A stretch of 64,000 nucleotides of DNA, taken from assembly GCA_002719295.1 (NCBI GenBank), contig PBHC01000016.1, positions 23,533-87,532 on the forward strand, in the 5' to 3' direction. Both the position numbers and the translations under genes were made by a program. The DNA is from Chloroflexota bacterium. GTDB lineage: Bacteria; Chloroflexota; Dehalococcoidia; Lucifugimonadales; Lucifugimonadaceae. Positions 2,589 through 34,412 of this stretch are shown piece by piece. Positions within the stretch are counted from its first letter, which is position 1. Every line of letters begins with the position of its first letter. Under the pieces are notes generated by a model that saw nothing but the letters and a program-made list of their open reading frames with translations, was not told the origin of the DNA and made no database searches.

Positions 2589-3376
2589 AATTTTTCAATA
2601 ATAGTGGTAAGGTCCTTTAGTGAATTAATAATATGATCTGGTTTAATTGATTGTTCTTGTAAATTATTTTTTCTATTAATAAGAACGTTTTTAATATTCA
2701 GTTTTTGTGCACCCAAGATATCTCCATCTAATGTGTCTCCAACCATAATTATTTCATTTAAGTCTAAGGATAGTTTTTCACAAATGTATTTATATGGCTT
2801 GCTGAAAGGCTTTCCTTGTAAGCACTCTGAAGAAGTTACAATTTCTGAGTTTGGGGTTGAAAAAAAATCCATTAAACCGGAAATACTTATTTTTTTCCTT
2901 TGGTGCAATTGCATTCCATTTGTCAGGATTCCTAGTTTATATCTTTTTAATTTCGTAAGTGTAGGGATTACGTCATCAAATGATTTTATTCCCTCCCACA
3001 TGAAAAATTTATATTTATCAATAATACTTTTGATATTTATTTTCTTACTTAAAATACCTAAATTTTTTATAACATTTATCCACATTTCATTTTGAGCTTC
3101 TAAATGAATATTTTTAAGATGTTGAGCTATTTCACCAAATCCTCCACAATCAGCCCATAATATATCTCTTCCACCAAATTTAGCATCTAAGTAATCAGCG
3201 AAATATTTTTTTGAACCAACAGAATCTATTGTCTCTATCATTATTTTCAAGACTTCAGTATTTTTCATATTAAAATCGGGAAAAAATGTTTTTATTGTTC
3301 TTAAATAATTAAAATCATATAGATCATCATGAACGGTTAATGTATCGTCTAAATCAAAAATTATACCTTTGATCAT
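2585..3376 (-). CDS. HAD-superfamily hydrolase (subfamily IA)
   Basis: FDLDDTL motif I, LTNG, KP, VGDTLDGDILGA motif IV. Confidence 0.9.
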   Translation of the reverse strand: MIKGIIFDLDDTLTVHDDLYDFNYLRTIKTFFPDFNMKNTEVLKIMIETIDSVGSKKYFADYLDAKFGGRDILWADCGGFGEIAQHLKNIHLEAQNEMWINVIKNLGILSKKINIKSIIDKYKFFMWEGIKSFDDVIPTLTKLKRYKLGILTNGMQLHQRKKISISGLMDFFSTPNSEIVTSSECLQGKPFSKPYKYICEKLSLDLNEIIMVGDTLDGDILGAQKLNIKNVLINRKNNLQEQSIKPDHIINSLKDLTTIIEKL

Positions 3377-4434
3377 AAATTTGAAATTATTGATCTTGTT
3401 ACTTCTGATGTACTAGAGTTCCCTCCTAAGTCAGGAGATATTGATTCGCCTAATTCTAAAACATTTTTTACAGAATTTTCTATAATTTCTGCACTTTCAT
3501 TTTCTCCAAGATGTTTCATCATTATTCCAGCTGTTAGTATTTGAGCCATAGGGTTTGCTATACCTTTACCTGCAATATCTGGTGCTGAACCATGAGTTGG
3601 TTCAAACATTGATGGACTCGTTTTTGTTGGATCAATATTTCCACTAGAAGCTAATCCCATAGATCCTGTAATAATTGCTCCTATATCTGTTAGAATATCT
3701 CCAAAAAGATTACTTGCTACTACTACGTCAAAGTTTTGTGGCTTTCTTATGAAGTCCATACATGCAGCATCAATTAATAATGAATCTGTTGTAACCTGAG
3801 GGTAATCTTTTTTTACTTCCTCAAATGTTCTATCCCATAGAACCATTGAATATCCTTGAGCGTTGGATTTAGTTATTGAAGTTAGATGCTTCTTTTTGTT
3901 TCTTTCTATTGCTAACTCAAATGCAAATCTTATAACTCTTTCACAACCTTTTCTTGTAAACACTGCACTTTGAACAGCAACTTCATCAGGGAATCCTTGA
4001 TATTGAAATCCTCCAACATTAGCATATTCTCCTTCAGTGTTTTCTCTTACCACGACAAGATCTATATCATATGGCTTTAAGTCTTTTAGAGGAGTATTAA
4101 CTCCTGGATATAATACAGATGGTCTTACACATGCAAATTGATCGAATGCTCTTCGGATTGGAAGAAGTAATCCATTTAGAGTTATATGATCTTGAATATC
4201 CGGGTGTCCTACGGCTCCTAAGAAAATGGCATCAAAAGATTCTAATTGTTCAATCCCATCTTTAGGCATCATAATCCCATTTTTAAAATAATATTCTGAG
4301 CTCCAGTCAAATTCATGAAAATCAAGCTTGTAATCTTTGTTTTTTTCTAAAGCCTTTAGAACTTCAATAGAACTATTAACTACTTCTACACCAATTCCAT
4401 CTCCTGGAATTACGGCTATTTTATAAGTTTTCAT
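3373..4434 (-). CDS. Tartrate dehydrogenase / D-malate dehydrogenase (decarboxylating), isocitrate/isopropylmalate dehydrogenase family
   Basis: IAVIPGDGIG, LLLPIRRAFDQFACVRP, VRENTEGEY, TKSNA, NLFGDILTD, EPTHGSAPDIAGKG. Start set at ATG 4434 behind an AGGAGA RBS. Confidence 0.85.
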   Translation of the reverse strand: MKTYKIAVIPGDGIGVEVVNSSIEVLKALEKNKDYKLDFHEFDWSSEYYFKNGIMMPKDGIEQLESFDAIFLGAVGHPDIQDHITLNGLLLPIRRAFDQFACVRPSVLYPGVNTPLKDLKPYDIDLVVVRENTEGEYANVGGFQYQGFPDEVAVQSAVFTRKGCERVIRFAFELAIERNKKKHLTSITKSNAQGYSMVLWDRTFEEVKKDYPQVTTDSLLIDAACMDFIRKPQNFDVVVASNLFGDILTDIGAIITGSMGLASSGNIDPTKTSPSMFEPTHGSAPDIAGKGIANPMAQILTAGIMMKHLGENESAEIIENSVKNVLELGESISPDLGGNSSTSEVTRSIISNL

Positions 4435-4444
4435 ATATTTTCTC

Positions 4445-5317
4445 CTAATTTTGCTTCTCAATTATTTGAATTATTCCAGCCATATCATCCATTTCTTTTC
4501 CATCTTTTTTTAGTTCATCATATAATTTTTTTGAAGTTTTTGTTAATGGTAAATTTACTGATAAATCTTTTCCTAATTGATCTATTATAGAAATATCTTT
4601 ATGTAAGTTTCTTGCTGGTACAGGAGAACCTTTAAATTTCCTGTCCCTTATTATAGGAGCACATCTTTCTAACATTCTTGAATAACCAAAGCTAACCTGT
4701 AATATTTCCATTGCAGAGTCTATGTCAACATTTGTGGCATTTGTTAATGCAAGGGCTTCTGCTGCTGCAGTTGTGTGTACAGCAGTTAGTAGTTGATTAA
4801 TTAATTTCATAGATGTTCCTGATCCGCTATCACCCATATGTTTAATTGTCGTCCCCATCATTTTGAAATAATTTAAGGCAGCATTATATGCTTCTTTATT
4901 TCCTCCAACCATAATAGATAATGTTCCATCATTTGCACCAACTGGTCCTCCTGATATAGGAGCGTCAAGAAAATCAGAACCTTTTTCTTTTGAATATTCA
5001 AAACATTTTTTAGATGTTGAGAGGTCTACGGTAGAGTGGTCTATAATGATTTTTTTATCATTAGTATTAGACAAGATTCCTTCTTTTCCTGTTATTATTT
5101 CAATTGATGTTTCAGTATCAGGTAGGCATGTCAAAATTATGTCGCATTTCTCTGCAAGTTCTTGAATAGAAGAAGCTCCTTTTGCCCCAACTTTCTCCAT
5201 AGCAATTATTTTTTCTCTACTTCTTGTGTAAACAGTAAGATCAGCTCCTTTTTCAAGTAGATTATTTGCCATACCTTGACCCATGTTTCCTAATCCTATA
5301 AATCCTATCTTATTCAT
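4445..5317 (-). CDS. NAD(P)-dependent beta-hydroxyacid dehydrogenase (tartronate semialdehyde reductase / 3-hydroxyisobutyrate dehydrogenase family)
   Basis: IGFIGLGNMG, DAPISGG, catalytic K in MKLINQ, LHKD. Start at ATG 5317 with GAGGT RBS. Confidence 0.88.
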   Translation of the reverse strand: MNKIGFIGLGNMGQGMANNLLEKGADLTVYTRSREKIIAMEKVGAKGASSIQELAEKCDIILTCLPDTETSIEIITGKEGILSNTNDKKIIIDHSTVDLSTSKKCFEYSKEKGSDFLDAPISGGPVGANDGTLSIMVGGNKEAYNAALNYFKMMGTTIKHMGDSGSGTSMKLINQLLTAVHTTAAAEALALTNATNVDIDSAMEILQVSFGYSRMLERCAPIIRDRKFKGSPVPARNLHKDISIIDQLGKDLSVNLPLTKTSKKLYDELKKDGKEMDDMAGIIQIIEKQN

Positions 5318-5325
5318 ATCTAACC

Positions 5326-6267
5326 TCAATCTAAATTTGTGTTTATATTTTTAATTAATTTTTTTATACTTTCCTTAATTATCTCGTGTGAATTTGCAGC
5401 GTTATGTGGGGTAAGTATAACATTGTGTAAGCTTTTCAATTGATTATTTTTTGATAGTGGCTCATTTTCAAATACATCTAATGCAGCTCCTGCAATTTTT
5501 CCACTAACTAATGAATCATATAAGGCCTTTTCATTTATCAACTTTCCTCTAGCTGTATTAATTATGAAAGCATTTGACTTCATCCTTGAAAATTCATTTG
5601 AACTTATTAAATATTCAGTTTCTTCTACAATTCTAGTATGAAGAGTTATTACGTCAGAGTTTTCTAAAAGATAATCTAATTCAGAAACTTTTCCAAATTC
5701 TTGAAAACTTAATGTCCTTACGTTATCCATTCGGATTACAGGAGTAACAATGATATTCATGCCTAAATTGGAGCCAATTTTGGCAACTTTTTCTCCAATT
5801 GCTCCTGCACCAACTATACCTAAAGTTTTCCCTTCAAAAAGATCAACTTCAATTGATGGCCATTCGTTATTTCTTACTCTTCTATCTAACTCAGGAATTT
5901 TCTTTAATAATGAAATCATTAAACCGATTGAGTGTTCAGCAACAGAATTTGTTAATATATCAGGAATGTTTGAAACAATAATATTGTTTCTTTTTGCAGA
6001 ATCTACATCTATATGATCTAAAGCTATTCCAAAAACAGCTATATGTTTTAAGCTTGGTAAGCTCTCAATTATATTATTATTTATTTTTGTAGTTGCTTTA
6101 GTTATGACAGCTGTGTGAGCATCATTTAATCTTGATAGAATTTCTCTAGAATCAGATGGTAATGATCTGAAAACTTCTATTTCATTTTCATTTTTCAAAT
6201 CATTAAATAATGAAGGATCATATGAAACTACCTGAGGTTCGTCATCAACTATTACTATTTTGGACAT
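5326..6267 (-). CDS. D-isomer-specific 2-hydroxyacid dehydrogenase (PGDH-like, no ACT domain)
   Basis: VAEH, GIVGAGAIG, INTARG, DVFENEP, TPHNA. Confidence 0.9.
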   Translation of the reverse strand: MSKIVIVDDEPQVVSYDPSLFNDLKNENEIEVFRSLPSDSREILSRLNDAHTAVITKATTKINNNIIESLPSLKHIAVFGIALDHIDVDSAKRNNIIVSNIPDILTNSVAEHSIGLMISLLKKIPELDRRVRNNEWPSIEVDLFEGKTLGIVGAGAIGEKVAKIGSNLGMNIIVTPVIRMDNVRTLSFQEFGKVSELDYLLENSDVITLHTRIVEETEYLISSNEFSRMKSNAFIINTARGKLINEKALYDSLVSGKIAGAALDVFENEPLSKNNQLKSLHNVILTPHNAANSHEIIKESIKKLIKNINTNLD

Positions 6268-6331
6268 TATAAAAAAACTCCAGTGAAAATTCTATTATAA
6301 TGTTCTTATCATCTATAAAAAACATTATTTC

Positions 6332-6664
6332 ATGTCAGCATATAAAATTTTATACTGGAAAGAAATTCCTACACAACTAAAATTTAAAGATAATGAAGGA
6401 AATGAAGGCTCATATCCACTTAGTCTGTTTTTTCAAACAGCAATAGATGCTATTGCTATGCATGATGGATCAATTGAAAGTGGAGCATATCTAGATGCTT
6501 GGGATTGGGGCCCAGAGTTAGAAACAAACCAGGACCCTGAGGAAATTATTAAAGAATTTGATGATAATATTCCTAAATCATTTATTAATAAAATCAAATC
6601 TTTACACGACGAAGGAAAAAGATCAGGATTACCTGGTTCGATAGACTCATGGTTCAAAACTTAA
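6332..6664 (+). CDS. Small protein resembling the Pfam Virulence_fact family (stand-alone form); function unknown
   Basis: ILYWKEIP-Q...F-AID-AM-G...AYL-W-W pattern recalled for this family; first gene of the corrinoid operon. Confidence 0.6.
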   Translation: MSAYKILYWKEIPTQLKFKDNEGNEGSYPLSLFFQTAIDAIAMHDGSIESGAYLDAWDWGPELETNQDPEEIIKEFDDNIPKSFINKIKSLHDEGKRSGLPGSIDSWFKT

Positions 6665-7572
6665 AAAGTAGCTCAAAAAAAATTCTTGATGACATAAAAA
6701 AAGGTAAAATATTTTTACTTGATGGCGCCACCGGTACTTTTTTACAGAATAATGGTCTTGAACCAGGAGGATGCCCTGAACTTATGAATATTGAATCCCC
6801 AGAAGTTATTTCTAAAATGGCTCATAACTACTTTTCAAACGGAAGTGATATTGTTCTTACTAATACATTCGGAGGTAATTACTATAGGCTAAAACATTAT
6901 GGATTGGAACAAAAAGTATTTGAAATAAATAAATTAGCCACTGAGATTGCCAAAAGTGCAGCATCAGAATATCAAGAAAAATATGTATTTGGATCTATTG
7001 GTCCTACTGGAGAATTTTTAGAACCATTAGGGAATGTTTCTGAAAAAGAAATGTATGATTGCCTTTTTAATCAAATGAAAGGATTGTATGAAGGTGGGGT
7101 TGATGGATTTGTAATAGAAACTCAAATAGCAACAGAAGAAACATTGCTTGCATTAAAAGTTGCAAAGGAAAACTTTAATATTTTAAATATAGTCTCATTT
7201 GTATATGATAAAGGGCCAAAAGGTTATTTTACTATGTTTGGACTTACTCCATCTCAAAGTGTTGAAATGTTTTTTAATTCAGGAGCAGATATTGTAGGGA
7301 CAAACTGTGGTAACGGTTCAGAAAAAATGGTTGAAATTTCTACAGAAATTCGAGCTGAAACAGATAATCCTATTTTAGTACAAGCTAATGCAGGTATTCC
7401 AATAATTAAGAAAAACGATATAATTTACCCAGAATCTCCTGAAGATATGGTGAAAGAATATAAAAAATTAATAGATTTGAACATAAATATATTAGGTGGA
7501 TGTTGTGGTACAAACGAGAAGCATATTAATGAGTTTTCAAAAATAATAAGGAGTCACAATGAAAGTATCTGA
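6649..7572 (+). CDS. Stand-alone homocysteine S-methyltransferase domain (MetH N-terminal/BHMT-like)
   Basis: LLDGATGT, TNTFGGN, GSIGPTG, Zn ligands GTNC and GGCCGT, NAGIP. Confidence 0.92.
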   Translation: MVQNLKSSSKKILDDIKKGKIFLLDGATGTFLQNNGLEPGGCPELMNIESPEVISKMAHNYFSNGSDIVLTNTFGGNYYRLKHYGLEQKVFEINKLATEIAKSAASEYQEKYVFGSIGPTGEFLEPLGNVSEKEMYDCLFNQMKGLYEGGVDGFVIETQIATEETLLALKVAKENFNILNIVSFVYDKGPKGYFTMFGLTPSQSVEMFFNSGADIVGTNCGNGSEKMVEISTEIRAETDNPILVQANAGIPIIKKNDIIYPESPEDMVKEYKKLIDLNINILGGCCGTNEKHINEFSKIIRSHNESI

Positions 7573-8203
7573 AGTTAAAATTAAATTCGGAAAATGCCTT
7601 GAACTTGTTTCAATGGATCCAAATTTTCATAATATAAGTGTAGGTTTATTTATAAAAAATGATATCTTAACTGTTTGGTCTTACAGTAAAAAAGAAGGAA
7701 TTGAAAAAAGGCTAAACATTATAAGAGATAAAATGGTTGAATTTGGTGGGTTAAATAATTTAGAAGAAGACTATAAGATGTCAATTCCAAAAGGAGCTCT
7801 TATTGAAAGGCCACTGAAATTTTTGTTTAGTCAATGTGTGGAAATGTCTCCTGATAAAGAACCTGAAAAAGGCATAATTACAGCAAAAGATAATAAAACA
7901 AAATTGACTTTTTTAATCAAAGGATCTCAGGAATCAGACAAGTATCTCTATACTGTGACTTCTGAAGGAGATCATGAAAAACCAGGACTCAGAATTAGGG
8001 CAGTTGTTGGAGGTTTTATGAAATATGGTGAATGTATAAGAAATGATGTTGATTCATTTTACTTCCCTGATAAAAAAGATCATGAAGAATACGTTAGAGT
8101 TTTGCTTCCCTTCGCAAGAAATGTAAGCGCAGTTGAACAAATGTTAGAAGCATCTGATCAAGCTGGACAAATGACAACACAAAGTTTAGGGTTTTCGCAA
8201 TAA
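7559..8203 (+). CDS. Hypothetical protein within the corrinoid methyltransferase operon
   Basis: 214-aa ORF overlapping the upstream stop, AGGAG RBS, no motif recognised. Confidence 0.8.
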   Translation: MKVSEVKIKFGKCLELVSMDPNFHNISVGLFIKNDILTVWSYSKKEGIEKRLNIIRDKMVEFGGLNNLEEDYKMSIPKGALIERPLKFLFSQCVEMSPDKEPEKGIITAKDNKTKLTFLIKGSQESDKYLYTVTSEGDHEKPGLRIRAVVGGFMKYGECIRNDVDSFYFPDKKDHEEYVRVLLPFARNVSAVEQMLEASDQAGQMTTQSLGFSQ

Positions 8204-8218
8204 TAGGGAGAAAATATT

Positions 8219-9247
8219 ATGAAACAAATGACAAAAAAGGAAAGAGTTCTAGCAGCTCTAAATAGATCAGAAGTAGATAGGCCTCCAGTAGCTAACCCTA
8301 CATCTGTTGCTACTGTAGAAATGATGGATTTAGTTGATGCTCCTTTCCCTGATGCTTGTAGGTCGGCAGAATTAAACGCCAGACTTGCAGCTACAGAAAT
8401 TACAGAATTTGATTTTGATGCTATCGCGCCATACTTTTCAATAATTCAAGAATCTAGTGCTATTGGATGTGAAATGCAATGGGAGCAGAAAGATAATTGG
8501 CCTACTGTTAGAATGACTAATCCAATATGGAAAACATCAAGTGATATTAAAGTTCCATCAGATTTTTTAGATCATCCAGATGTTAAGGTGATACTAGATT
8601 CAATAAGAATTTTAAAAAAAGAATTTGGAAACGATGTTCCTATAATTGGAAAAACTATGGGACCTTGGACTCTTGCGTATCATGTTTTTGGTGTTGAAAC
8701 ATTCCTTTTGGGATCAGTAGATAGTCCAGATGAAACTATAAAGTCTTTAGAAAAACTTCAAGAGTTTACATATTTATTTGGAGAGGCACAAGTTGATGCA
8801 GGAGCAGATGTATTAACTATTCCAGATCATGCAACAGGAGATTTAGTTTCTGGTCAATATTATCAAAAATTCCTTCAAGAAATTCATTCAGAAATGGCTC
8901 AAAAATTCACAGTCCCTTTAATCCTTCATATTTGTGGGAGAACAGTAGACAGAATGCCATATATTGCAGACACAGGTATGCATGCATTTCATTTTGATTC
9001 AAAAAATTCTCCTCAAGAAGCCATGGATGCTGTAGATAATAAAATTGCCTTAGTTGGAAATATTAATAATCCAGAAACGCTATATTCTAAAGACGCTGAT
9101 GATGTAAAAAAAGAGGTATTTGAATGCCTAAATGCTGGAGTTCAGCTAATAGCACCTGAATGTGCGATCCCATTAAAAACTAAAGCTGAGAATTTGGTAG
9201 CAATAAACGAAGGTATTTCGGATTGGCTAGCAGAAACTAATTCATAG
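8219..9247 (+). CDS. MtaA/CmuA-family (URO-D fold) methylcobamide:thiol methyltransferase
   Basis: MTKKERVLAAL...DRPP start, GPWTLA, Zn motif LHICG, GNINNP, third Zn ligand in APECAIP. Confidence 0.88.
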   Translation: MKQMTKKERVLAALNRSEVDRPPVANPTSVATVEMMDLVDAPFPDACRSAELNARLAATEITEFDFDAIAPYFSIIQESSAIGCEMQWEQKDNWPTVRMTNPIWKTSSDIKVPSDFLDHPDVKVILDSIRILKKEFGNDVPIIGKTMGPWTLAYHVFGVETFLLGSVDSPDETIKSLEKLQEFTYLFGEAQVDAGADVLTIPDHATGDLVSGQYYQKFLQEIHSEMAQKFTVPLILHICGRTVDRMPYIADTGMHAFHFDSKNSPQEAMDAVDNKIALVGNINNPETLYSKDADDVKKEVFECLNAGVQLIAPECAIPLKTKAENLVAINEGISDWLAETNS

Positions 9248-9300
9248 ATTTGATAAAATAAAAATATACTTTACATATTCGAAAAATAATAGGAAAATTT

Positions 9301-10044
9301 ATGTTTGATCATGAAGGACTTTCAAAAGAATTTGAGTGGGTAACCAAAGAAAGTGAAAAAAACCATATAGGTGGAGCTATTTCTAAAACTTCGCTTGAAA
9401 TGCAAGAAATTTCTTATGCTCTTATTACTGGAGATAATAACTTAGTAGATGAACTTACAAAAAAAGCACTAGATAATGGATCTACTGCAAATGAAATACT
9501 TGATGATGGATTATTAAATGGAATGGCAATTGTAGGGGTTAAATTTAGAGACAATGTAATTTTTGTACCAGAAGTTCTAATATCAGCCAGAGCTATGAAA
9601 GCTGGAATGGCACACATTGAGCCAATATTATCTGAATCAGGAATTGAACCTCAAGGTATTGTATTAATGGGTACAGTCAAAGGAGATTTACATGATATCG
9701 GAAAGAATCTGTGCATAATGATGCTACGAGGCGCAGGATTTACTGTTCATGATTTGGGTGTTGATACCTCTCCTGAAGATTTTGTTGATGGCTTTGAAGA
9801 ACATGAACCCCAAGTAATAGGAATGTCTGCTCTTTTAACCACAACCATGCCTAATATGGGAAGAACTATACAGTATTTTGAAGATATTGGTTTGAGAGAA
9901 GACGTTAGAATGATGGTAGGCGGAGCCCCTGTCACTCAAGAATTTGCAGATGAAATGGGAGCAGACGGATATGGAGAGAGTGCTGTTGACGCTGTAGATA
10001 AAGCAAAGGAGCTTGTTGAGCTTCTAAAAGATCTAAAGAGCTAA
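9301..10044 (+). CDS. Corrinoid (B12-binding) protein, MtaC/MtbC/MttC-like, with cap domain
   Basis: Cap motif F-PEVL-ARAM, GTVKGDLHDIGKNL (DxHxxG), SALLTTTM, VGGAPV. Confidence 0.95.
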   Translation: MFDHEGLSKEFEWVTKESEKNHIGGAISKTSLEMQEISYALITGDNNLVDELTKKALDNGSTANEILDDGLLNGMAIVGVKFRDNVIFVPEVLISARAMKAGMAHIEPILSESGIEPQGIVLMGTVKGDLHDIGKNLCIMMLRGAGFTVHDLGVDTSPEDFVDGFEEHEPQVIGMSALLTTTMPNMGRTIQYFEDIGLREDVRMMVGGAPVTQEFADEMGADGYGESAVDAVDKAKELVELLKDLKS

Positions 10045-10051
10045 ATTAAAA

Positions 10052-10330
10052 ATGACTTATAAAAAGTCTAATTCAAATAATAAAAAAAGATTACAGAAGA
10101 GTTTAGATAACCTATATAATATTTTTCAAGATATATCTTCTCATGCTGATGAAATCAGTAAAACTAGATGTCCTTACAAAAATGCTAAAAATTTATGTAC
10201 GGCAAATTTTTCTTGCAGGAATCAGCATTTTACTGAAAAAAATATAGAACTCCCCTATTGTGTTGGTTCTCATAAATTAGATTATAGATTTGCATGGGAA
10301 GTAGATAAACCTATTAAAAAAAATGACTAG
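10052..10330 (+). CDS. Small Cys-rich hypothetical protein (Cx8Cx5Cx14C)
   Basis: 92-aa ORF between the corrinoid protein and the activator, overlapping the activator start. Confidence 0.75.
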   Translation: MTYKKSNSNNKKRLQKSLDNLYNIFQDISSHADEISKTRCPYKNAKNLCTANFSCRNQHFTEKNIELPYCVGSHKLDYRFAWEVDKPIKKND

Positions 10331-11954
10331 CAATAAATTTATTAATGACAAAGAATCTATAGAATTAACAAAAAATAAATCTCTGTTCGAGTATGCAGAT
10401 AAAGTTAAAATGAGAATTCCAACATCTTGTGGCCGGGTTGGTGATTGCCATGAGTGTATAGTTGAGGTGTCTGAAGGATATGAATTATTATCAAAACCAA
10501 CAGATCATGAATTTTTTTTAAAGGAACCATTTAGATTAGCATGTCAAGCTATCACTACTTCAACAGAAACTAATTTAATCTTTAGTCCTAGAAAAAGAGA
10601 TCGAAAAATTTTGACAAATTTTTCTAATGAATCTTCATACGAAGTAGATCATAACTATAGTTATCAAGATAATGCATTAATTTATAAGTCTGACAAAGAT
10701 GAAAAAGTTTTATCGAAATCTAAAAATTTCTATGGATTAGCTATTGATGTTGGAACTACCACGGTAGCAATTAATTTAGTTGATATTAATAATGGAAAAG
10801 TCATTATTACTTCCTCTTTTGAAAACCCTCAGATATTTGGAGGCTCAGATGTAATGAATAGAATCTCTTATGATTCAAGTAATTATAAAGGAGAGTTGTC
10901 AAAAGCTATCATATCTTCAGTAAATTTTGAAATAGGAGAGTTTGTTAAAAAGTTGAAAATCAGAAGAAATGAAATTGTTGAAGTTACTATTGTTGGAAAC
11001 TCAACAATGAGAGATTTGTTTTTTAGTTTAGATGTAGAACCAATTGGAGTTAAACCTTATAAATCAATAATTGAAACTAATTATTTAGATTCTAAAATAC
11101 CAACTACTGAATTATTTACTACTGCAAAGGATTTAAACTTAAGAATTAATTCACAAGCTATGATTTATAGCCCTCCTCTTATTGCTTCCCACATTGGATC
11201 TGATGTTTCTGCAGGTTTGATAGCTACTGATTTTTTTCTAAATAATAAGATGAAAATGTTAATAGATATTGGAACAAATACAGAAGTTGTTTTAGGAACT
11301 CCAGATAGAATGCTTGCTGCTTCATGTCCAGCTGGCCCCGCATTTGAGGGAGGGGAAATAACATATGGAATGCCAGGTTATGATGGAGCAATAGAGAAGG
11401 TAAATTTTGAAAAAAATAATTTTATATACCAAACTATAGGTAATTCAAAACCATTGGGTCTTTGTGGTTCTGGATTAATCGATTTTCTTTCAGTGCTAGT
11501 AGATAATAATATTATGAATCCGCTAGGTAAATTTGAACTTGAAAAAGAGTCTGTTTTTATTGATGATAATGAATCTATAAATTTATCTAGAAGAGATGTA
11601 TCTAGCCTAGCTCAAGCAAAAGCAGCCAATGTCTGTGGACAAGCTTTAGTTATAAAGGATTTTGGAACTAATATAGATGCTATTGATAACATTTATCTTG
11701 CTGGAGGTTTTGCAAATTATATAGATATTGAAAATGCAAGAAATATAGGGTTTATACTTGATTTCCCTTTAGAAAAAATAAAAAAAATAGGAAATACTGC
11801 TTTAGAAGGAGCTACAAAGTTATTATTATCAAATAAACTTAGGAAAAATCTTGTTGAATATGTGAAAAAAATAGATCACTTAGAACTTGAAACAAAAGCA
11901 GAGTTTTTTGATTATTTTGTTGAAGGTTGTCAATTTAAGAAAATTTCAATATAG
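10323..11954 (+). CDS. ATP-dependent reductive activator of corrinoid proteins (RamA/RACE/RACo, DUF4445, ASKHA fold) with N-terminal [2Fe-2S] domain
   Basis: CGRVGDCHEC...RLACQ ferredoxin motif, DVGTTT, NPQ-FGGSDVMNR, DIGTNTE, GPAFEG, GLCGSG, LAGGF. Confidence 0.92.
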   Translation: MTSNKFINDKESIELTKNKSLFEYADKVKMRIPTSCGRVGDCHECIVEVSEGYELLSKPTDHEFFLKEPFRLACQAITTSTETNLIFSPRKRDRKILTNFSNESSYEVDHNYSYQDNALIYKSDKDEKVLSKSKNFYGLAIDVGTTTVAINLVDINNGKVIITSSFENPQIFGGSDVMNRISYDSSNYKGELSKAIISSVNFEIGEFVKKLKIRRNEIVEVTIVGNSTMRDLFFSLDVEPIGVKPYKSIIETNYLDSKIPTTELFTTAKDLNLRINSQAMIYSPPLIASHIGSDVSAGLIATDFFLNNKMKMLIDIGTNTEVVLGTPDRMLAASCPAGPAFEGGEITYGMPGYDGAIEKVNFEKNNFIYQTIGNSKPLGLCGSGLIDFLSVLVDNNIMNPLGKFELEKESVFIDDNESINLSRRDVSSLAQAKAANVCGQALVIKDFGTNIDAIDNIYLAGGFANYIDIENARNIGFILDFPLEKIKKIGNTALEGATKLLLSNKLRKNLVEYVKKIDHLELETKAEFFDYFVEGCQFKKISI

Positions 11955-11962
11955 AGGGGAAT

Positions 11963-12952
11963 ATGAAATATAAAGCAGTAATTACAGATTATGTGTGGCC
12001 TAATCTTGATATCGAAACAAAAATTCTTAATGATAATAATATAGAGGTTGTTGATTGTAAAAATAAAAACGATCAAGAACTCATGAATGAATTGAAAGAT
12101 GCTGATGCTATTCTTTTTTGCTTTAGAGAAGTACCTGCGGAATTTCTTGAAGTATCTACAAAATGTAAGGTTGCATCAAGATATGGAATTGGTGTAGATA
12201 ATATAGATATAAAAAAATGTACAGAATTAGGCATTGTTGTAACGAATATTCCTGATTATTGTTTAGAAGAAGTATCAGATCATGCAATAGCTATGATCCT
12301 TAGTTTAAATAGAAGAATAAATGATCATTCAAATATGGTAAAAAAAGGTGGATGGAATGATCTAAATTTAAACATACCTGTTCAAAGACTTAGTGAATCA
12401 ACTTTAGGGATTGTTGGGTTTGGAAGAATAGGCAGAACTATTGCTTCAAGGGTATCTGCTTTAGGTATAAAGTCTGTGGCATTCGATCCTTTATTACAAC
12501 CAGGAAAAATAATTGATAACGTAGAAATCGTATCTTTTGAAAATTTATTGAAAGATTCTGATTTTATTACAGTTCATGTCCCGTTGAATGAAAAAACACA
12601 TCATCTTTTCTCTGAAAATGAATTTAATCAAATGAAAAATAACGCAATTCTAGTTAACTGTGCAAGAGGAGGATTGATTGATGAAAATGCAGCCTCAAAA
12701 GCACTTTCAAAAGGTCAAATAGGAGGAGTTGGATTAGATGTTATTGAAGATACTTCTAATTCTCCTTCAAGCCCTCTATTTAATAATGAAAATGTGATAA
12801 TTACTCCACATACAGCTTTTTTCTCTAAAGCCTCAGGTGAAGAACTCCAAAAAAGGACAGCAGAAGAAATTGTTAGAGTTATAAATAATGACAAACCTGA
12901 AAATTTTATTAACCCTGAAGTTTTAGGAAACACTAGGTCTAATATAAGTTAA
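11963..12952 (+). CDS. D-2-hydroxyacid dehydrogenase, CtBP-like
   Basis: RYGIGVDNID, PDYCLEEVSDH, GFGRIG, NCARG, TPHTA. Confidence 0.9.
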   Translation: MKYKAVITDYVWPNLDIETKILNDNNIEVVDCKNKNDQELMNELKDADAILFCFREVPAEFLEVSTKCKVASRYGIGVDNIDIKKCTELGIVVTNIPDYCLEEVSDHAIAMILSLNRRINDHSNMVKKGGWNDLNLNIPVQRLSESTLGIVGFGRIGRTIASRVSALGIKSVAFDPLLQPGKIIDNVEIVSFENLLKDSDFITVHVPLNEKTHHLFSENEFNQMKNNAILVNCARGGLIDENAASKALSKGQIGGVGLDVIEDTSNSPSSPLFNNENVIITPHTAFFSKASGEELQKRTAEEIVRVINNDKPENFINPEVLGNTRSNIS

Positions 12953-29226: not shown

Positions 29227-29319
29227 TGGCGGGAGAGAAAGGGAATCGAACCCTCCTTGATAAATAATACCAATCATAGTTTTGAAGACTAGAAAATTCA
29301 CCAGAATATACTCACTCCC
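29227..29319 (-). tRNA. selC: tRNA-Sec (anticodon UCA)
   Basis: GGGAGTGA-GT-ATATTC-TGGT-GAATTT-TCTAGT-CTTCAAA-ACTATG-long variable arm-GAGGG-TTCGATT-CCCTT-TCTCTCCC-G-CCA: 8/5 acceptor/T fold, 6-bp D stem with 4-nt loop, UCA anticodon, G discriminator. Confidence 0.9.
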
Positions 29320-29329
29320 TTATAATTTT

Positions 29330-29653
29330 TTATACTACAGAATTAAGTTTTTCTTCAAAATGTTGTTTTCCAACAGCTCCGATTATTTGATCAACTGGCT
29401 TACCGTCTTTAAAAATAACATTCATTGGAATAGACCTAACAAAAAACTTAACTGAAAGGTTTGGATTACTATCAACATCAACTTTGGCAAATAAAACTTT
29501 ACCATCATACTCTTCTGCAAGTTGATCTAATGTAGGTGCAATCATTTTGCAAGGTCCACACCAATCAGCCCAAAAGTCAACCATTACGGGGATATCAGAA
29601 TTTTCTACTAACTGTTCAAAATCTGCTTCTGTTACATTTATAGGCTTTGACAT
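29330..29653 (-). CDS. trxA: Thioredoxin
   Basis: DFWADWCGPCKMIAP, SIP. Confidence 0.97.
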   Translation of the reverse strand: MSKPINVTEADFEQLVENSDIPVMVDFWADWCGPCKMIAPTLDQLAEEYDGKVLFAKVDVDSNPNLSVKFFVRSIPMNVIFKDGKPVDQIIGAVGKQHFEEKLNSVV

Positions 29654-29666
29654 ATCATCCTCTCAA

Positions 29667-32222
29667 TTATTTTTTTATTTTTATTTTTTTACATTCAAGC
29701 TGAGGGACTATTGAAGAGAAATCAGGATTCTTACTAGATTCTAGATCAGTAACCATTCTTCCAAAATAATCAGTTGAAGTTATCATTCCTTCAATTTCAC
29801 CATCTGCTAAAAACTCAGAAGAAATTATTATATTTCCATTTTCATCTTCCAAAGTTATTTTTGTTGAATCATTTAAATTGTACGCTGATGCATCATTAGG
29901 ATGCAATCTTAATTTCACTGGTGTTTTAATTTTGTTCATATCTTCTTCAGATTCTACTGTTATTTCTTCAGGTCTATTCAAAATTCTTCCAGGTAAATAA
30001 TATAGGGATTTTGATTCATATTGACCAAGTTCAGTGTCCGAAAATTTTATCAAATTAGATAATGGTTTTTTACTAATGCTTAAATTATCATCTGATATTT
30101 TTGATATAAATGTATTTTTTGCATTTACTATATCTATTTTTTTATCATTATAAATTTTTTCTGATATTTCCCATATAGACAGTAGATTATTACTTACTGG
30201 TTGTATCATCTTAGGAGCATTTTTAATTTTTCCTGCTAAGTTAATAACTGTTGATTCTTGCTCTGCATAAGTTTTTGTTGGAATAACAAAATCAGCATTA
30301 TCAAAAACTTTATTTTTTAAGTGATTTGCATAAATCATTACTTCTAAATTTTCTGAAATTTCATCTAACTTGTTTTCAAATAAAAGATCAGGATTAATTC
30401 CGTCTCCAAATATAATCAATGCTTTAATTGATTTATCATTTATCTTTTCTAATATTTCTTTAGTAGTTGTGAATGGTTGTTTATTAGATTCAAATATTTG
30501 ATAAAAAGAAGAAGATCCTATACCGTTAAATGTTGGATATAATCCTTTTCCTTCACCTTCTAAATTATCAGTTATTACAGCTAAGTTATAAATTGAATCA
30601 ATATAATTATTTGTTTCAAGATCATTTATTGTATCTTGTCCAAAAGTAAATGAAGTTTTATTTGATTTAGAAATTAATTCTGCAGCTTCATATAATTTTT
30701 TTTCTGGGACTTTAGTTATGTTAGAAATTTTAACTGGGTCAAAATTCCACATGAATTTCTTGAAATTATCTACTTGATCTGAATCTAAATCTTTATTTTC
30801 AAGGTTTTGGTCAAAAATTATTTTACTAATAGCATTTACAATCAATCCTTCAGTTCCGGGGACAGGCTTTAACCAAAGCTTTGCATACCTAGTTAAGTCT
30901 ATTTCACGTGGATCAATGACAATAAGTTTAGATTGTTCTTTTGATGCTTTTTTAATTGGCAGAGAAATCAAATTGTTTTCTTCTGTAATGTTTGACGAAA
31001 TAACAACATTGCAATCGGACTTTTCTAGATTCCATATATTAGAAGAGGAAGATAGGTAACCTATCCTTTCTGATAACGTTTTATAATAAGGAATATTGTT
31101 AAGATATGCACTAGCAACATACTTAGTATTTACTTTTTTTGCTAAATTCAATATTCCTAAATTATCTTCCACAGATGCCCTAGGAGAGGATATTATTGCT
31201 ATCTCATTTGAATCTAAATTAGATAGCTTTGAGTTCAATTCAGAAAAAACCTGATCATTTTCAATTGTTTTGTGTTTATAAACTTCTTTGATATATGATT
31301 TCTTAATTCTTGATGTTGAGTTCGGATAATCATATCCAAATTTTCCTTTGTAACATAGTTGGCCTCTTGTTGATTCAGAAGATAAATCTCCTTTGAACCT
31401 AACTAATTTCTCTGATTTATTTACTTCAACCAGTGCATCACACCCACCTGCGCAGTTAAAACATGTTGCATTGAATTCTTTGTCAGATTTTTCCCATTTA
31501 TAGTTTCTTTCAACTAAAGCTCCTGTTGGGCAAACATCAATACATGCTCCACAAAATTCACATCCTGACTCTAGTAATGAAGTCCCATTTGATGTTCCTA
31601 CCAAAGAAACTCCAGATCTAGAAACTAAAGTCAAAGCTGAATCTATTCTGATTTCATCACAAACCCTAACACATCTAGCACAAACAATACACAAATTGTA
31701 ATCTCTATCGTAAAAAGGGTCATCAACATGAATAGGTAAATCTCTTCTGTTGTAATTTAGAGGAATCGTCATATCTAGCTGAACAAATCTTGCAGTATCC
31801 TTAAGTTCACATCTTTCATTTTTTGGACAGATAGTGCATCTATCCGTAACTGCAACATGTCTTTGACAGATGTCTTGAGGCCCACATAATTCAGTCCTAT
31901 GACAAGTAAGACAACCATGTGGATGTTCACTCATCAATAACTCAACAACACCTTTTCTAAGATCATTAACAGAATCATTTTCACTTTCTACTTTCATAGA
32001 GTCGCCTGCTGGAGTAGTACATGAAGCAACTGTCATTTTTCTTCCATTTGGCATCTCAACTTCAACTAAACAAGCTCTGCATGCTCCATATGGCTTCATG
32101 CTTGGATAATAGCAAAGATATGGGATATAAATATCGTTATCCATTGCTACTTGAAGAATAGTTTGACCAGACTTTATGTCTAAGTTTTTACCATTTATAT
32201 TTATTTTTTGTTCATCAGCCAA
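29667..32222 (-). CDS. NuoG/FdsA-like Fe-S protein with degenerate molybdopterin-binding region
   Basis: [2Fe-2S] YLCYY..GACRAC..ASC; HxxxCxxC; CIVCARCVRVC; CEFCGACIDVCP; CFNCAGGC..LCYKG; C-terminal IDPR, PGT, P-YAE remnants; TTG start. Confidence 0.85.
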   Translation of the reverse strand: MADEQKININGKNLDIKSGQTILQVAMDNDIYIPYLCYYPSMKPYGACRACLVEVEMPNGRKMTVASCTTPAGDSMKVESENDSVNDLRKGVVELLMSEHPHGCLTCHRTELCGPQDICQRHVAVTDRCTICPKNERCELKDTARFVQLDMTIPLNYNRRDLPIHVDDPFYDRDYNLCIVCARCVRVCDEIRIDSALTLVSRSGVSLVGTSNGTSLLESGCEFCGACIDVCPTGALVERNYKWEKSDKEFNATCFNCAGGCDALVEVNKSEKLVRFKGDLSSESTRGQLCYKGKFGYDYPNSTSRIKKSYIKEVYKHKTIENDQVFSELNSKLSNLDSNEIAIISSPRASVEDNLGILNLAKKVNTKYVASAYLNNIPYYKTLSERIGYLSSSSNIWNLEKSDCNVVISSNITEENNLISLPIKKASKEQSKLIVIDPREIDLTRYAKLWLKPVPGTEGLIVNAISKIIFDQNLENKDLDSDQVDNFKKFMWNFDPVKISNITKVPEKKLYEAAELISKSNKTSFTFGQDTINDLETNNYIDSIYNLAVITDNLEGEGKGLYPTFNGIGSSSFYQIFESNKQPFTTTKEILEKINDKSIKALIIFGDGINPDLLFENKLDEISENLEVMIYANHLKNKVFDNADFVIPTKTYAEQESTVINLAGKIKNAPKMIQPVSNNLLSIWEISEKIYNDKKIDIVNAKNTFISKISDDNLSISKKPLSNLIKFSDTELGQYESKSLYYLPGRILNRPEEITVESEEDMNKIKTPVKLRLHPNDASAYNLNDSTKITLEDENGNIIISSEFLADGEIEGMITSTDYFGRMVTDLESSKNPDFSSIVPQLECKKIKIKK

Positions 32223-32225
32223 TTT

Positions 32226-33929
32226 TTACTCCGTAGAATTTGGTCTTGTTCTAGTTGGTGTAAGCATTTTTTCTAATGGTTCTACTTTATTATTTAGTGA
32301 ATCAATAATTTCAGATTCAAAGTATTTCAAAGACGAGGATATAGGATTGTATCCTAATTGTCCATGTCCACATAGGGATCCAATTTTCATACTGTTTCCT
32401 ATTCGTTCAAGCAATTGTAAGTCATTTGTATTACTTTTTGAGTCAGCTAATCTCTGAAGTACATCATACATATGAGTATTTCCTAATCTACATGGGAAAC
32501 ATTTTCCACATGACTCAAATTGGTTAAATGCAACTAAGTTTCTAATCAAATCAACTACAGATACTGAATCGTCACAAACAATAATTCCTCCTGACCCTAG
32601 TATTGCTCCAGATTGAGCCATTTCATCAAAATCTATCTTTGTTGAAAAAGCTTCTTTTCCAAGAACTCCACCCAAGGGGCCACCAGTTTGAAGCATCTTT
32701 ATTGGTTTATTTGAGTTTGATCCTCCCCCAACCTCTTCTAATACTTCATCAATTGTCATACCCATTGGTATTTCATACATTCCGGGTCTATTTATATGCC
32801 CTGACAAACAAACAATTGCAGTGCCACTAGATTTTTCGGTTCCTGTAGACTTAAACCAATCTGATCCATTTTTAATAATTTGTGGAACATAAGAAATAGT
32901 TTTCACATTATTTATATTTGTAGGCTTTTTCCATAATCCAGATGCAGCAGGAAAAGGTGGTTTGAAACGAGGAGTAGATCTTTTACCTTCTATTGCTTCC
33001 ATTAAGGCTGTTTCTTCTCCCGCAACATAAGAGTCTCCTGTAAGAGAAACTTCCATATCAAATGAGAAATCCGAACCTAAAATATTTTTTCCTAAAAGTC
33101 CTTTTTCATAAGCTTCAGCAATGGCTCTTTCAATTGCATTAATTGGAATATCGTGACCTTGTCGGATAAATACATAAGATTTGTTAGAGTTTGTTGCATA
33201 TCCATTTAATATTAGACCTTCGACAAGTGTGTGAGGATCAGTTTCCATTATTCCTTTATCATTATATGCTCCAGGATCTCCCTCTTCACAATTACATAAA
33301 ACATACTTAACGGGAGCTTTATTTGGTGCTAGAAAGCTCCATTTTACTCCTGTCGGGAATGCGGCCCCTCCTCTTCCTCTAAGACCAGAATTTTTTACTT
33401 CTTCAACAACATCTTCAGGAGACATTTCAAAAAGTGCTTTATTTAATGCTGCATATCCACCTGTAGAAATATATTGCAAAATATCTCCAGGTGTTACTTC
33501 ACCAAAGTTTCTAGTAGCGATTCTCAATTGCTTTGCAAACTGAGGAAGTTCATTTAATTTTGGTATAGATGCGTCTAGATTGCGAGAAGATTCATAAGCA
33601 AACGAGTTTTCTTTAAGTATTTCGTTAGAAGATGAGTAATGATTAAATATTTTCTCGCTTATTTTTTCATCAACATTTGCATAAAAAATCTGATCATTAT
33701 TGGGCAGAATCACAACAATTAAAGGCTCAAGATACATCAATCCCATAGATCCAACTTCAATTACATTTATTTTGTCAGATTTTTTTGAACTAAGTAATGA
33801 AAAAATCTCATCAGCTCCAACAGCTTGTCCTGATGTACCAGTTTGTACCTTTATTACAACTTTATTTTTGTAAATACTATCAATGTATTCATTTGCTAAT
33901 TTTTCTAAATTTTTATATTGTTCTGTCAT
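32226..33929 (-). CDS. nuoF: NuoF/FdsB/HoxF-like NADH-binding flavoprotein with N-terminal thioredoxin-like domain
   Basis: SGLRGRGGAAFPTG-KW, NCEEGDPG, GEETAL, NNVKT, GGPLGG, ESCGKCFPCR..SLCGHG. Confidence 0.9.
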   Translation of the reverse strand: MTEQYKNLEKLANEYIDSIYKNKVVIKVQTGTSGQAVGADEIFSLLSSKKSDKINVIEVGSMGLMYLEPLIVVILPNNDQIFYANVDEKISEKIFNHYSSSNEILKENSFAYESSRNLDASIPKLNELPQFAKQLRIATRNFGEVTPGDILQYISTGGYAALNKALFEMSPEDVVEEVKNSGLRGRGGAAFPTGVKWSFLAPNKAPVKYVLCNCEEGDPGAYNDKGIMETDPHTLVEGLILNGYATNSNKSYVFIRQGHDIPINAIERAIAEAYEKGLLGKNILGSDFSFDMEVSLTGDSYVAGEETALMEAIEGKRSTPRFKPPFPAASGLWKKPTNINNVKTISYVPQIIKNGSDWFKSTGTEKSSGTAIVCLSGHINRPGMYEIPMGMTIDEVLEEVGGGSNSNKPIKMLQTGGPLGGVLGKEAFSTKIDFDEMAQSGAILGSGGIIVCDDSVSVVDLIRNLVAFNQFESCGKCFPCRLGNTHMYDVLQRLADSKSNTNDLQLLERIGNSMKIGSLCGHGQLGYNPISSSLKYFESEIIDSLNNKVEPLEKMLTPTRTRPNSTE

Positions 33930-33932
33930 ATA

Positions 33933-34412
33933 TTAATTTTTCAATTTATCAATTATTTTTGTAACTTTTGTTTCATCCAATTTTCCATACATTTTATGAT
34001 CGATTGCAAAAACTGGACTTTGTGCACATGCACCTAAGCAAGTAGAATATCTTAGAGTAACTTTTTTATCTTCAGATTCTCCTTCACCTTTTATTTCTAA
34101 TTCATCATGAGCTTGATTTATTAGTTTTTGAGCTCCATTAATATGACAACTTGGCCCCCAACAAACATCAAGTGTTTTGTCTCCTGGTGGTGTAAATCTG
34201 AAATTTGTATAAAATGAGGCTACGCTCCATACATCGTTAATAGTTACACTACAATGGATTGATATTTCTTCTATGGCTTCATCAGGAATATAGTGAAGAG
34301 TGTCTTGCACTGCTAAAAGTGAAGATAATACTGTAACTGTTTTTCTTTTTTGATTAGAAATAGAATCTTTAATAATATTTCTTAATTTTTCAGAACTTTG
34401 ATTTTCTGACAA
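33933..34412 (-). CDS. nuoE: NuoE/FdsG-like [2Fe-2S] subunit
   Basis: VASFY-F, CWGPSC and CLGAC ligands; TTG start with GGAGAG RBS. Confidence 0.9.
   Translation of the reverse strand: MSENQSSEKLRNIIKDSISNQKRKTVTVLSSLLAVQDTLHYIPDEAIEEISIHCSVTINDVWSVASFYTNFRFTPPGDKTLDVCWGPSCHINGAQKLINQAHDELEIKGEGESEDKKVTLRYSTCLGACAQSPVFAIDHKMYGKLDETKVTKIIDKLKN

Follow-up and report, generated by a model that had tools for sequence, protein, structure and literature searches.

Eight genes on the plus strand of a 64,000-nucleotide stretch of DNA (the window) from a marine Chloroflexota genome make up what is probably a corrinoid methyl-transfer hub. In the reading favoured here, to which a probability of about 0.6 is given, the operon joins a split methionine synthase (MetH) with a zinc methyltransferase of the MtaA/CmuA family (URO-D fold; the MtaA-like enzyme), which would act as a third substrate module on the same corrinoid carrier. 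An activase would reduce Co(II) to Co(I) on the corrinoid protein. A pterin-binding protein would load the corrinoid from 5-methyl-tetrahydrofolate (methyl-THF), the MtaA-like enzyme would load Co(I), most likely from a small methylated sulfur (or selenium or halide) compound, and a stand-alone homocysteine methyltransferase (the Hcy enzyme) would unload the methyl group onto homocysteine to form methionine. In genomes with the pterin gene, the methyl group of the donor might be passed to THF by the pterin module in reverse and oxidised through methylene-THF reductase (MTHFR), by analogy with what has been proposed for MtgBCD.

The genome under study (G000) comprises 1.27 Mb in 20 contigs and is 81% complete; the window covers positions 23533-87532 of its contig C16 and has a GC content of about 30%. 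Homologous loci came from a scan with one genome per species, which gave at least 599 candidate stretches, at least 569 of them encoding a relative of the MtaA-like (URO-D) protein. Locus counts given below refer to 78 loci, i.e., the best 80 of these at least 569 except two in which the open reading frame (ORF) of the URO-D protein was missed by the ORF selection. The ORFs of the loci were called by a simple script and labelled by blastp against the window proteins (E 1e-8), and the neighbourhood was defined as 8 kb around the MtaA-like gene. Genome comparisons included a class sample of 151 genomes, in which the family of the host (f1) is represented by G000 and four sampled members (G029, G064, G088 and G142, 95-97% complete). 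Two further groups were five genomes with the compact cluster (G156-G160), including Candidatus Lucifugimonas marina, and the five genomes of 3.0-4.3 Mb (G151-G155) behind five loci with a stand-alone MtaA-like gene.

The cluster is conserved, a point in favour of the preliminary description of this DNA. Within the neighbourhood of the MtaA-like gene, six partner genes were present at 52 to 68 of the 78 loci: the gene of the 214-aa protein at 68, that of the Hcy enzyme at 67, of the corrinoid protein at 65, of the 92-aa protein at 61, of the activase at 58 and the downstream dehydrogenase gene, mostly right after the activase, at 52. The PF13769 gene was found at 49. Many of the misses in these counts are contigs ending within the cluster. 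Gene order in relatives is nearly always that of the window, and the arrangement is no chance grouping. Outside the closest relatives, identity is 67-76% for the MtaA-like enzyme and 64-79% for the corrinoid protein (64-95% over all related loci), with lower values for the Hcy enzyme (44-59%), the activase (43-54%) and the 214-aa protein (33-55%). The MtaA-like enzyme is the best-conserved protein of the cluster and forms its best-conserved pair with the corrinoid protein, whose gene adjoins its own, yet it is needless for an ordinary split MetH. The nearest proteins carry the names Chloroflexota, Dehalococcoidia or SAR202 and the best 80 loci are likewise titled, Candidatus Lucifugimonas marina JH545 being among them; the names bear out a marine Chloroflexota host of the SAR202/Dehalococcoidia kind.

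No pterin-binding, MttB or MtaB gene lies in the window, in agreement with the preliminary description. The contig of the window has no pterin-binding gene at all, and both PF00809 matches of G000 are on contigs C8 and C12. The 283-aa open frame on C8 is taken to be a dihydropteroate-synthase-type gene on the strength of its high score and its length. The gene on C12 encodes a stand-alone pterin-binding methyltransferase of 332 aa (PF00809, 70.2 bits), with a 262-aa weak MTHFR homologue (PF02219-like, 24.6 bits) just before it and a BrkB/YihY membrane protein gene after it. In the class sample, full-length orthologues of the pterin protein (49-73% identity), the Hcy enzyme (51-72%) and the MtaA-like enzyme (69-90%) are found in one and the same set of five genomes, which are all members of f1. 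Outside f1 the best pterin match is 39% over a partial length, and the Hcy domains reach at most 35% and are mostly part of frames 600-1370 aa long, suggestive of MetH or of fused forms. All five of the further compact-cluster genomes have a stand-alone pterin orthologue (47-51%, far from the cluster), so that the orthologue is present in 10/10 examined cluster genomes without MetH. The pterin gene is also found within the cluster at 8/78 loci, directly 5' of the PF13769 gene in six (L056, L066, L068, L076, L077 and L082) and just 3' of the MtaA-like gene in two (L015 and L067, with the corrinoid gene next in L067), and it is adjacent to the cluster in G088 too. An MTHFR gene is a frequent 5' neighbour. 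An MTHFR of the 529-575-aa type with a C-terminal PF12225 domain lies directly 5' of the pterin gene in L106 (Pfam), proteins 55-65% identical to it are encoded 5' of the pterin gene in L107, L108, L112, L068, L076 and L077, and a short MetF-like form takes this position in G000, L109 and L111. On the other side, a BrkB/YihY-family membrane gene (PF03631; L002 2242-3153) follows directly 3' at all 7 distant sites (L106-L112) and in G000.

Neither G000 nor its four f1 relatives has a match to PF02965 (MetH reactivation), PF01717 (MetE) or PF06253 (MttB), PF02965 is likewise absent from all five of G156-G160 (0/5), and no MtaB was found in G000, at its completeness of 81%. With no MetH reactivation domain or MetE and a co-conserved pterin gene, the Hcy enzyme, the corrinoid protein, the activase and the C12 pterin protein are the only recognisable methionine synthase. 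Compared with canonical MetH, the system is not one polypeptide, its genes are separate and the PF02965 domain is absent. The parts of a split MetH are all there: a stand-alone PF02574 protein, PF02607 with PF02310, PF00809 (on another contig), and an activase with PF14574 and PF17651 in place of the PF02965 domain. Judged by its genes, the operon together with the C12 pterin gene is a split, RamA/RACE-reactivated methionine synthase of the roseobacter MtgC/D/E type, with the activities of its parts predicted from their families.

These results bear on the proposal, made when only the window had been seen, that the operon has no folate module and serves a strictly folate-independent route, in which the MtaA-like enzyme would remove the methyl group of a methyl halide or methylated sulfur compound, and the corrinoid would carry it to the Hcy enzyme for the formation of methionine. 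The pterin gene is indeed absent from the window, the zinc site of the MtaA-like enzyme is of the thiol type, and G151-G155 (see below) keep the gene set without a stand-alone pterin gene or MttB. At the level of the organism, however, a dedicated pterin methyltransferase is encoded in G000 next to an MTHFR-like gene, the pterin gene is co-conserved with the cluster (in every one of the ten MetH-less genomes, and inside the cluster in the eight loci above), and there is no MetH reactivation domain or MetE in G000 to account for it otherwise, so that such a route is quite improbable. The same pterin gene bears on the alternative that a co-conserved methyl-THF methyltransferase would reduce the cluster to ordinary split MetH. 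This explanation holds for the Hcy, corrinoid and activase genes and leaves the MtaA-like gene unexplained.

Hidden Markov model searches and phylogenetic analysis placed the MtaA-like enzyme, as first described, in the MtaA/CmuA family. It passes TIGR01463 mtaA_cmuA (242.3 vs 235.4) and PRK06252 (266.4 vs 244) and fails the equivalog models of MtaA (NF040654, 238.3 of 400) and MtbA (NF041608, 198.7 of 600). Among 1.84 billion cluster representatives its full-length neighbours are 35-49% identical and methanogen-type proteins 25-33%, and the sole name in its nearest 50% clusters is 'MtaA/CmuA family methyltransferase'. In a midpoint-rooted tree of 94 domain sequences from a quick IQ-TREE run (the careful search being unfinished, and the set being without CmuA, MtsA, MtpA and Mlp1-3 references), it falls in a clade of 7 rows (SH-aLRT 100) within a 32-row clade (support 99), apart from a 62-row clade (support 99) that holds the passers of the MtaA and MtbA equivalogs and most corrinoid-fused forms. 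The enzyme is, as far as this tree and the family scores indicate, a member of a bacterial clade distinct from methanogen MtaA and MtbA. A protein of the 32-row clade, P0134 (42% identical to the MtaA-like enzyme), is a URO-D and B12-binding fusion, which supports the MtaA-like enzyme working directly with a corrinoid domain. In G000, G152, G154 and G156 the MtaA-like gene is the only PF01208 match; G151 has one additional match with a HemE-like score. A tblastn search for cmuA in a plasmid collection found only hemE-like matches of at most 28% identity. A pseudogene or a recoded gene may be present in a further family of the class, where an MtaA-like frame of 41% identity (G040:C40:1546-2499) contains one TGA and one TAG. 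A SAR202 metagenome-assembled genome (L015 8930-11014) has a tandem pair of MtaA-like genes, 62% and 68% identical to that of the window, then a pterin methyltransferase gene, with no corrinoid gene nearby.

The motifs LHICG and PECA can be read in the translation, and H237, C239 and C315 are invariant in 15/15 aligned sequences. We take these residues to be the zinc ligands by analogy to MtaA and from PMC10418091, and the thiol-type zinc site of the preliminary description is therein upheld. The His-Cys-Cys ligand set goes with sulfur or selenium rather than oxygen substrates (PMC10418091). Such a site also fits the idea that the MtaA-like enzyme, like MtaA of methanogens, acts on the acceptor side and moves the methyl group from methyl-corrinoid (charged from methyl-THF or methionine) to a thiol, for instance methanethiol, sulfide or a mercapto acid. 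The resulting thioether would serve biosynthesis or detoxification or be released as a volatile. Thiolate activation by a His-Cys-Cys site and an assay of ClMlp2 in the thiol-methylating direction have been described (PMC10418091), and the characterised close structural and family relatives, MtaA and MtbA, are all methyl-corrinoid:thiol methyltransferases, MtaA (4ay7, E 6e-51) being the nearest solved structure. Against this, no acceptor pathway is found in the neighbourhood, and the sole other module found in G151-G155 is the Hcy enzyme, which would have to run its known reaction backwards and demethylate methionine. Action on the acceptor side is therefore considered unlikely.

Selenium supply for selenocysteine through demethylation of methyl selenides was considered as a general role of the MtaA-like enzyme, an idea that arose from a tRNA-Sec in the window and from PMC10418091, and it was not supported. 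True SelA is present in G000 and G142, and the best matches of G029, G064 and G088 are no better than E 9e-9 to 3e-6, though all five genomes carry the cluster; SelA is common in cluster-free families of the class too.

The best evidence that the two zinc methyltransferases share one corrinoid comes from G151-G155. A corrinoid carrier requires one loading and one unloading enzyme. The five genomes retain orthologues of the MtaA-like, corrinoid, 92-aa, Hcy, 214-aa and activase genes at dispersed sites: the corrinoid gene (65-67% identity) at a second site, with the 92-aa gene adjoining in 4/5 regions and not detected in L095, the Hcy (46-49%) and 214-aa (47-48%) genes side by side at a third, and the activase gene (49-50%) at a fourth. 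A MetH-like frame of 1251-1269 aa is present in G151-G154, and in G155 the frames, on contig C18, are shorter, at 342 and 518 aa. No stand-alone pterin orthologue was found in the five genomes, the sole match being the pterin domain of MetH itself (29-32%), PF06253 is absent (0/5), and G152 and G154 have no second URO-D methyltransferase. The Hcy and MtaA-like enzymes are thus the only candidates found for loading and unloading in these two genomes, and their retention supports a shared carrier, as had been proposed from the window. In the genomes examined, the stand-alone pterin gene and MetH take each other's place (10 have the pterin gene but no PF02965, and five have a MetH-like frame but no stand-alone pterin gene), and the MtaA-like/corrinoid/Hcy trio is kept in both groups alike. 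The adjacency of the Hcy/214-aa and corrinoid/92-aa pairs after dispersal suggests physical partnerships.

In G151, the surroundings of the dispersed genes (dehydrogenases, a thiamine pyrophosphate enzyme, toxin-antitoxin genes and a MIP channel) give no clue to the substrate. The toxin-antitoxin-like flanks of the corrinoid and Hcy loci are a DarT-domain gene (L094 11415-12446) and a DUF433 and PIN pair (L104 7104-8638). The channel, a major intrinsic protein (PF00230; L094 8485-9393, minus strand), comes after the corrinoid/92-aa pair, and its presence there may point to a substrate that is small and uncharged; in L095-L098, ORFs comparable to it in size (294-298 aa) follow.

Another explanation is that the operon holds two separate systems, with the Hcy enzyme acting alone as a homocysteine methyltransferase dependent on betaine, dimethylsulfoniopropionate (DMSP) or S-methylmethionine, and the MtaA-like enzyme, corrinoid protein, activase and pterin protein forming a catabolic demethylase that feeds only the folate pool. 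In vitro, Bmt, the homologue from Phaeobacter, needs no cofactors to form methionine with DMSP or betaine as donor (PMC12366255, in the part available), PRK07534 'betaine--homocysteine S-methyltransferase' is among the best matches of the Hcy enzyme, and the pterin gene adjoins MTHFR. However, no other methionine synthase was found in the 10 compact-cluster genomes, a demethylase in G151-G155 would have no pterin outlet, and Phaeobacter and Ruegeria mutants need the homologous Hcy, corrinoid and pterin genes for methionine (PMC5764234 in its accessible portion; PMC12478193). It is hardly probable, therefore, that the two halves of the operon are independent.

Several points weigh against the hub with a shared carrier. 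G000 is only 81% complete, and the main support for the absence calls comes from its relatives. G151-G155 are probably closely related and amount to about one observation, their genes are dispersed, so that it is retention which argues for a shared function, and a module of an unfamiliar family could have escaped the searches in them. The Phaeobacter Hcy homologue works alone with DMSP or betaine, according to the available part of its description, so the Hcy enzyme of the operon need not use the corrinoid. The His-Cys-Cys site suits an acceptor thiol equally as a donor thioether, and the known thiol-methylating activity of the MtaA-like enzyme's closest relatives is likewise on that side. The corrinoid protein is under every NCBIfam cut-off, its best match being MtgC_2 (212.6 vs a cut-off of 370). 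DUF1638 (PF07796), a partner required in Phaeobacter, has no match in G000 at E up to 10, and the surroundings of the operon have no transporter or catabolic gene indicating a substrate. Gene content, motifs, conservation, phyletic patterns and clade placement are what was observed, and from these we infer every activity, the common use of one corrinoid, and in which direction and on what substrate the MtaA-like enzyme works. Dimethyl sulfide (DMS), methylmercaptopropionate (MMPA) and a methyl halide, named as donors at the outset, are guesses.

A bolder reading may be put forward tentatively. The core of MtaA-like enzyme, corrinoid protein, Hcy enzyme and activase could possibly be a corrinoid-dependent methyl-thioether (or methyl halide or selenide):homocysteine methyltransferase, a fifth, folate-independent route to methionine. 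The pterin module would then have been added later, allowing MetH to be lost in most lineages, and corrinoid methyltransferases would have new accessory subunits in the 214-aa, 92-aa and PF13769 proteins. Were this so, demethylation of methanethiol, DMS or MMPA would be tied directly to methionine synthesis and to oceanic B12 demand in the aerobic, globally abundant SAR202.

The eight co-oriented genes are listed in Table 1; Pfam, NCBIfam and the translations agree with the families and motifs first assigned to them. They are closely spaced (-16, -14, +15, +53, +7, -8 and +8 bases).

Table 1. Genes of the corrinoid methyl-transfer operon in the window
Feature	Length (aa)	Position	Strand	Family matches
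Virulence_fact-like protein, first gene of the operon	110	6332..6664	+	PF13769, 34.5 bits (cut-off 25)
Stand-alone homocysteine S-methyltransferase module (MetH Hcy domain, MtgE/Bmt-like)	307	6649..7572	+	PF02574, 200.6 bits
Conserved protein without known family	214	7559..8203	+	
MtaA/CmuA-family (URO-D fold) zinc methyltransferase	342	8219..9247	+	PF01208, 220.6 bits
Corrinoid protein, B12 cap and B12-binding domain	247	9301..10044	+	PF02607, 73.4 bits; PF02310, 98.2 bits
Four-Cys protein, no family	92	10052..10330	+	
RamA/RACE-type ATP-dependent reductive activase, N-terminal 2Fe-2S ferredoxin domain	543	10323..11954	+	PF00111; PF17651; PF14574, 228.1 bits
D-2-hydroxyacid dehydrogenase, last gene of the operon	329	11963..12952	+	PF02826, 186.9 bits; PF00389, 83.1 bits

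The PF13769 protein has seven residues that are invariant in 26 sequences (W9, K10, E11, P13, D45, G46 and S47, a W-K-E-x-P and D-G-S core). At each of the 49 loci with its gene, it stands immediately 5' of the Hcy gene, fused longer forms were searched for and none was found, and its relatives, where the sources give names, are Chloroflexi, Dehalococcoidia or SAR202. The top NCBIfam matches of the Hcy enzyme are PRK08645 (233.5) and PRK07534 (216.1), neither of which reaches its cut-off; GTNCG and GGCCG can be read in its translation, and C220, C285 and C286 are invariant in 29 sequences. The corrinoid protein has the motif DLHDIG in its translation, and the four cysteines of the 92-aa protein (C40, C49, C55 and C70) are invariant in 24/24 sequences. 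The activase has the architecture Fer2, RACo middle and RACo C-terminal domain, with an AcsV-like score of 322.7 bits against a cut-off of 800.

Neither the 214-aa protein nor its 29 homologues has a Pfam match. An AlphaFold2 model (pLDDT 89.2) predicts a tandem of two alpha/beta repeats and a C-terminal tail that is disordered but conserved, ending G-Q-M-T-T-x-T-L-G-F. The protein was considered as a divergent DUF1638 and rejected, there being no PF07796 match for the protein, its homologues or G000. No known fold was recognised either (best Foldseek E 0.064; best VIA-align Z 6.9 over 89 residues; nothing in the Atlas above 0.82). A complex prediction for the Hcy enzyme with the 214-aa protein scored 0.00, which carries no weight either way.

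The last gene of the operon scores 253 with PGDH and 217.3 with glyoxylate reductase, neither reaching the cut-off. Other dehydrogenase genes are found nearby and at related loci. Divergent from the operon, at 3373-6267 on the minus strand, are genes of a tartrate dehydrogenase (TIGR02089, 488 bits, above the cut-off), a tartronate-semialdehyde-reductase-like protein and a second D-2-hydroxyacid dehydrogenase; the tartrate dehydrogenase neighbourhood was found again in 9 to 19 of the 78 loci. The MtaA-like gene is in another context at nine loci (L040, L042-L045, L060, L061, L064 and L073), and in eight of these (all but L064) the solitary gene has a HIBADH-family dehydrogenase gene adjoining it or one small ORF off, whose product is 27-30% identical to that of the 4445-5329 gene of the window. 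A hydroxyacid dehydrogenase accompanies the MtaA-like gene in both contexts.

No cobalamin riboswitch was found in the window at gathering thresholds. Promoter-like sites numbered 43 against 37 expected, and the scan found no plus strand terminator within the operon; both results are uninformative given DNA of 30% GC. Contigs of four marine metatranscriptome runs (two studies) that match at 99% or more overlap parts of the Hcy, 214-aa, MtaA-like, corrinoid, 92-aa, activase and dehydrogenase genes and span the 214-aa/MtaA-like and corrinoid/92-aa junctions; the stretches 6200-6880 and 10286-11420, which are without cover, carry no weight. These matches are a weak sign of expression of the operon, as RNA libraries can contain DNA. 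Elsewhere in the window, some 350 bases separate the tRNA-Sec (29231-29319, minus strand; Rfam, 68.4 bits) from an 851-aa Fdh-alpha/NuoG-like ORF (29667-32222, minus strand), with a thioredoxin gene (29330-29653) between them and NuoF-like and NuoE-like ORFs (32226-33929 and 33933-34412, minus strand) after the Fdh-alpha/NuoG-like one. These ORFs probably encode a selenocysteine-dependent, NAD-linked formate dehydrogenase. The true SelA of G000 is on contig C9.

SAR202 bacteria are among the most abundant in the dark ocean. The results of this study indicate that many of them make methionine only by a B12-dependent multi-protein system, adding to the oceanic demand for B12, and that current annotation misses this system, its genes being labelled 'CoM methyltransferase', 'virulence factor' or 'hypothetical'. 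The split MetH/Mtg hub would be extended from Proteobacteria to Chloroflexota, with a different, methanogen-type donor module. If the MtaA-like enzyme acts on a methylated sulfur compound, marine organosulfur turnover would be linked directly to methionine synthesis. The question can be tested at the bench, since the cultured Candidatus Lucifugimonas marina carries the whole cluster. The hub principle and split MetH are already in print (2018, 2025), and MtaA-like clusters of anaerobic bacteria have been described in a preprint. No published account of the cluster in Chloroflexota (SAR202/Dehalococcoidia) was found in the full-text literature, the supplements of PMC12478193, which might list Chloroflexota, lying outside the search. 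Nor was any found of an MtaA-type module on a methionine-synthase hub or of the three accessory proteins (full-text literature; main text of PMC12478193 and PMC11245477).

Four known systems resemble the operon in part. Type 1 mlp clusters (Kountz and Balskus preprint, PMC10418091) are alike in that methyl-sulfur or methyl-selenium substrates are proposed for them. They differ in that they have two or three Mlp paralogues, at least an Mlp2 and an Mlp3 together with a corrinoid protein and RACE, in lacking an Hcy module and in being reported from obligate anaerobes alone (PMC10418091), whereas the operon, compared by description only, has one MtaA-like gene and an Hcy module. Selenocysteine use, moreover, does not follow the cluster, as 3/5 of the f1 genomes are without true SelA. 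The CmuA/CmuB chloromethane system of Alphaproteobacteria likewise combines an MtaA-type enzyme, a corrinoid carrier, a pterin-binding methyl-corrinoid:THF methyltransferase and an MTHFR gene. CmuA itself has the methyltransferase and corrinoid domains in one protein (PMC13222342, in the section available), while here, again compared by description only, they are encoded by separate genes. With MtaA, MtbA and MtsA of methanogens the MtaA-like enzyme shares the TIGR01463 family, the URO-D fold, the His-Cys-Cys ligands, a neighbouring corrinoid protein and an ATP-dependent activase. It differs from MtaA and MtbA in scoring under the equivalog cut-offs, in its separate, well-supported bacterial clade and in its host, which is no methanogen; its partner, moreover, is a homocysteine module and not MtaB, MtbB or MttB.

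The roseobacter systems offer a further comparison. The split MetH of Phaeobacter inhibens (PGA1_c13370, PGA1_c13350 and PGA1_c16040, with RamA-like and DUF1638 proteins) was shown by genetics, as far as the accessible text of PMC5764234 goes, and Ruegeria pomeroyi has MtgB, C, D and E with an mtgD-metF2 arrangement (PMC12478193), its MtgC being described as close to CmuA (PMC12478193). The main text of PMC12478193 makes no mention of SAR202 or of an MtaA-type module. The Chloroflexota system differs from these in having no MttB-family MtgB but an MtaA/CmuA-family URO-D enzyme instead, and in having the PF13769, 214-aa and four-Cys 92-aa proteins instead of DUF1638; its Hcy, corrinoid and activase genes, moreover, are in one operon. 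The two kinds of system are alike in the stand-alone Hcy and corrinoid proteins, the stand-alone pterin protein encoded next to a metF paralogue, the RamA-like activase and the lack of MetH and MetE, and for the roseobacter systems too one corrinoid has been proposed to serve several substrate modules (PMC5764234, in its available part; PMC12478193).

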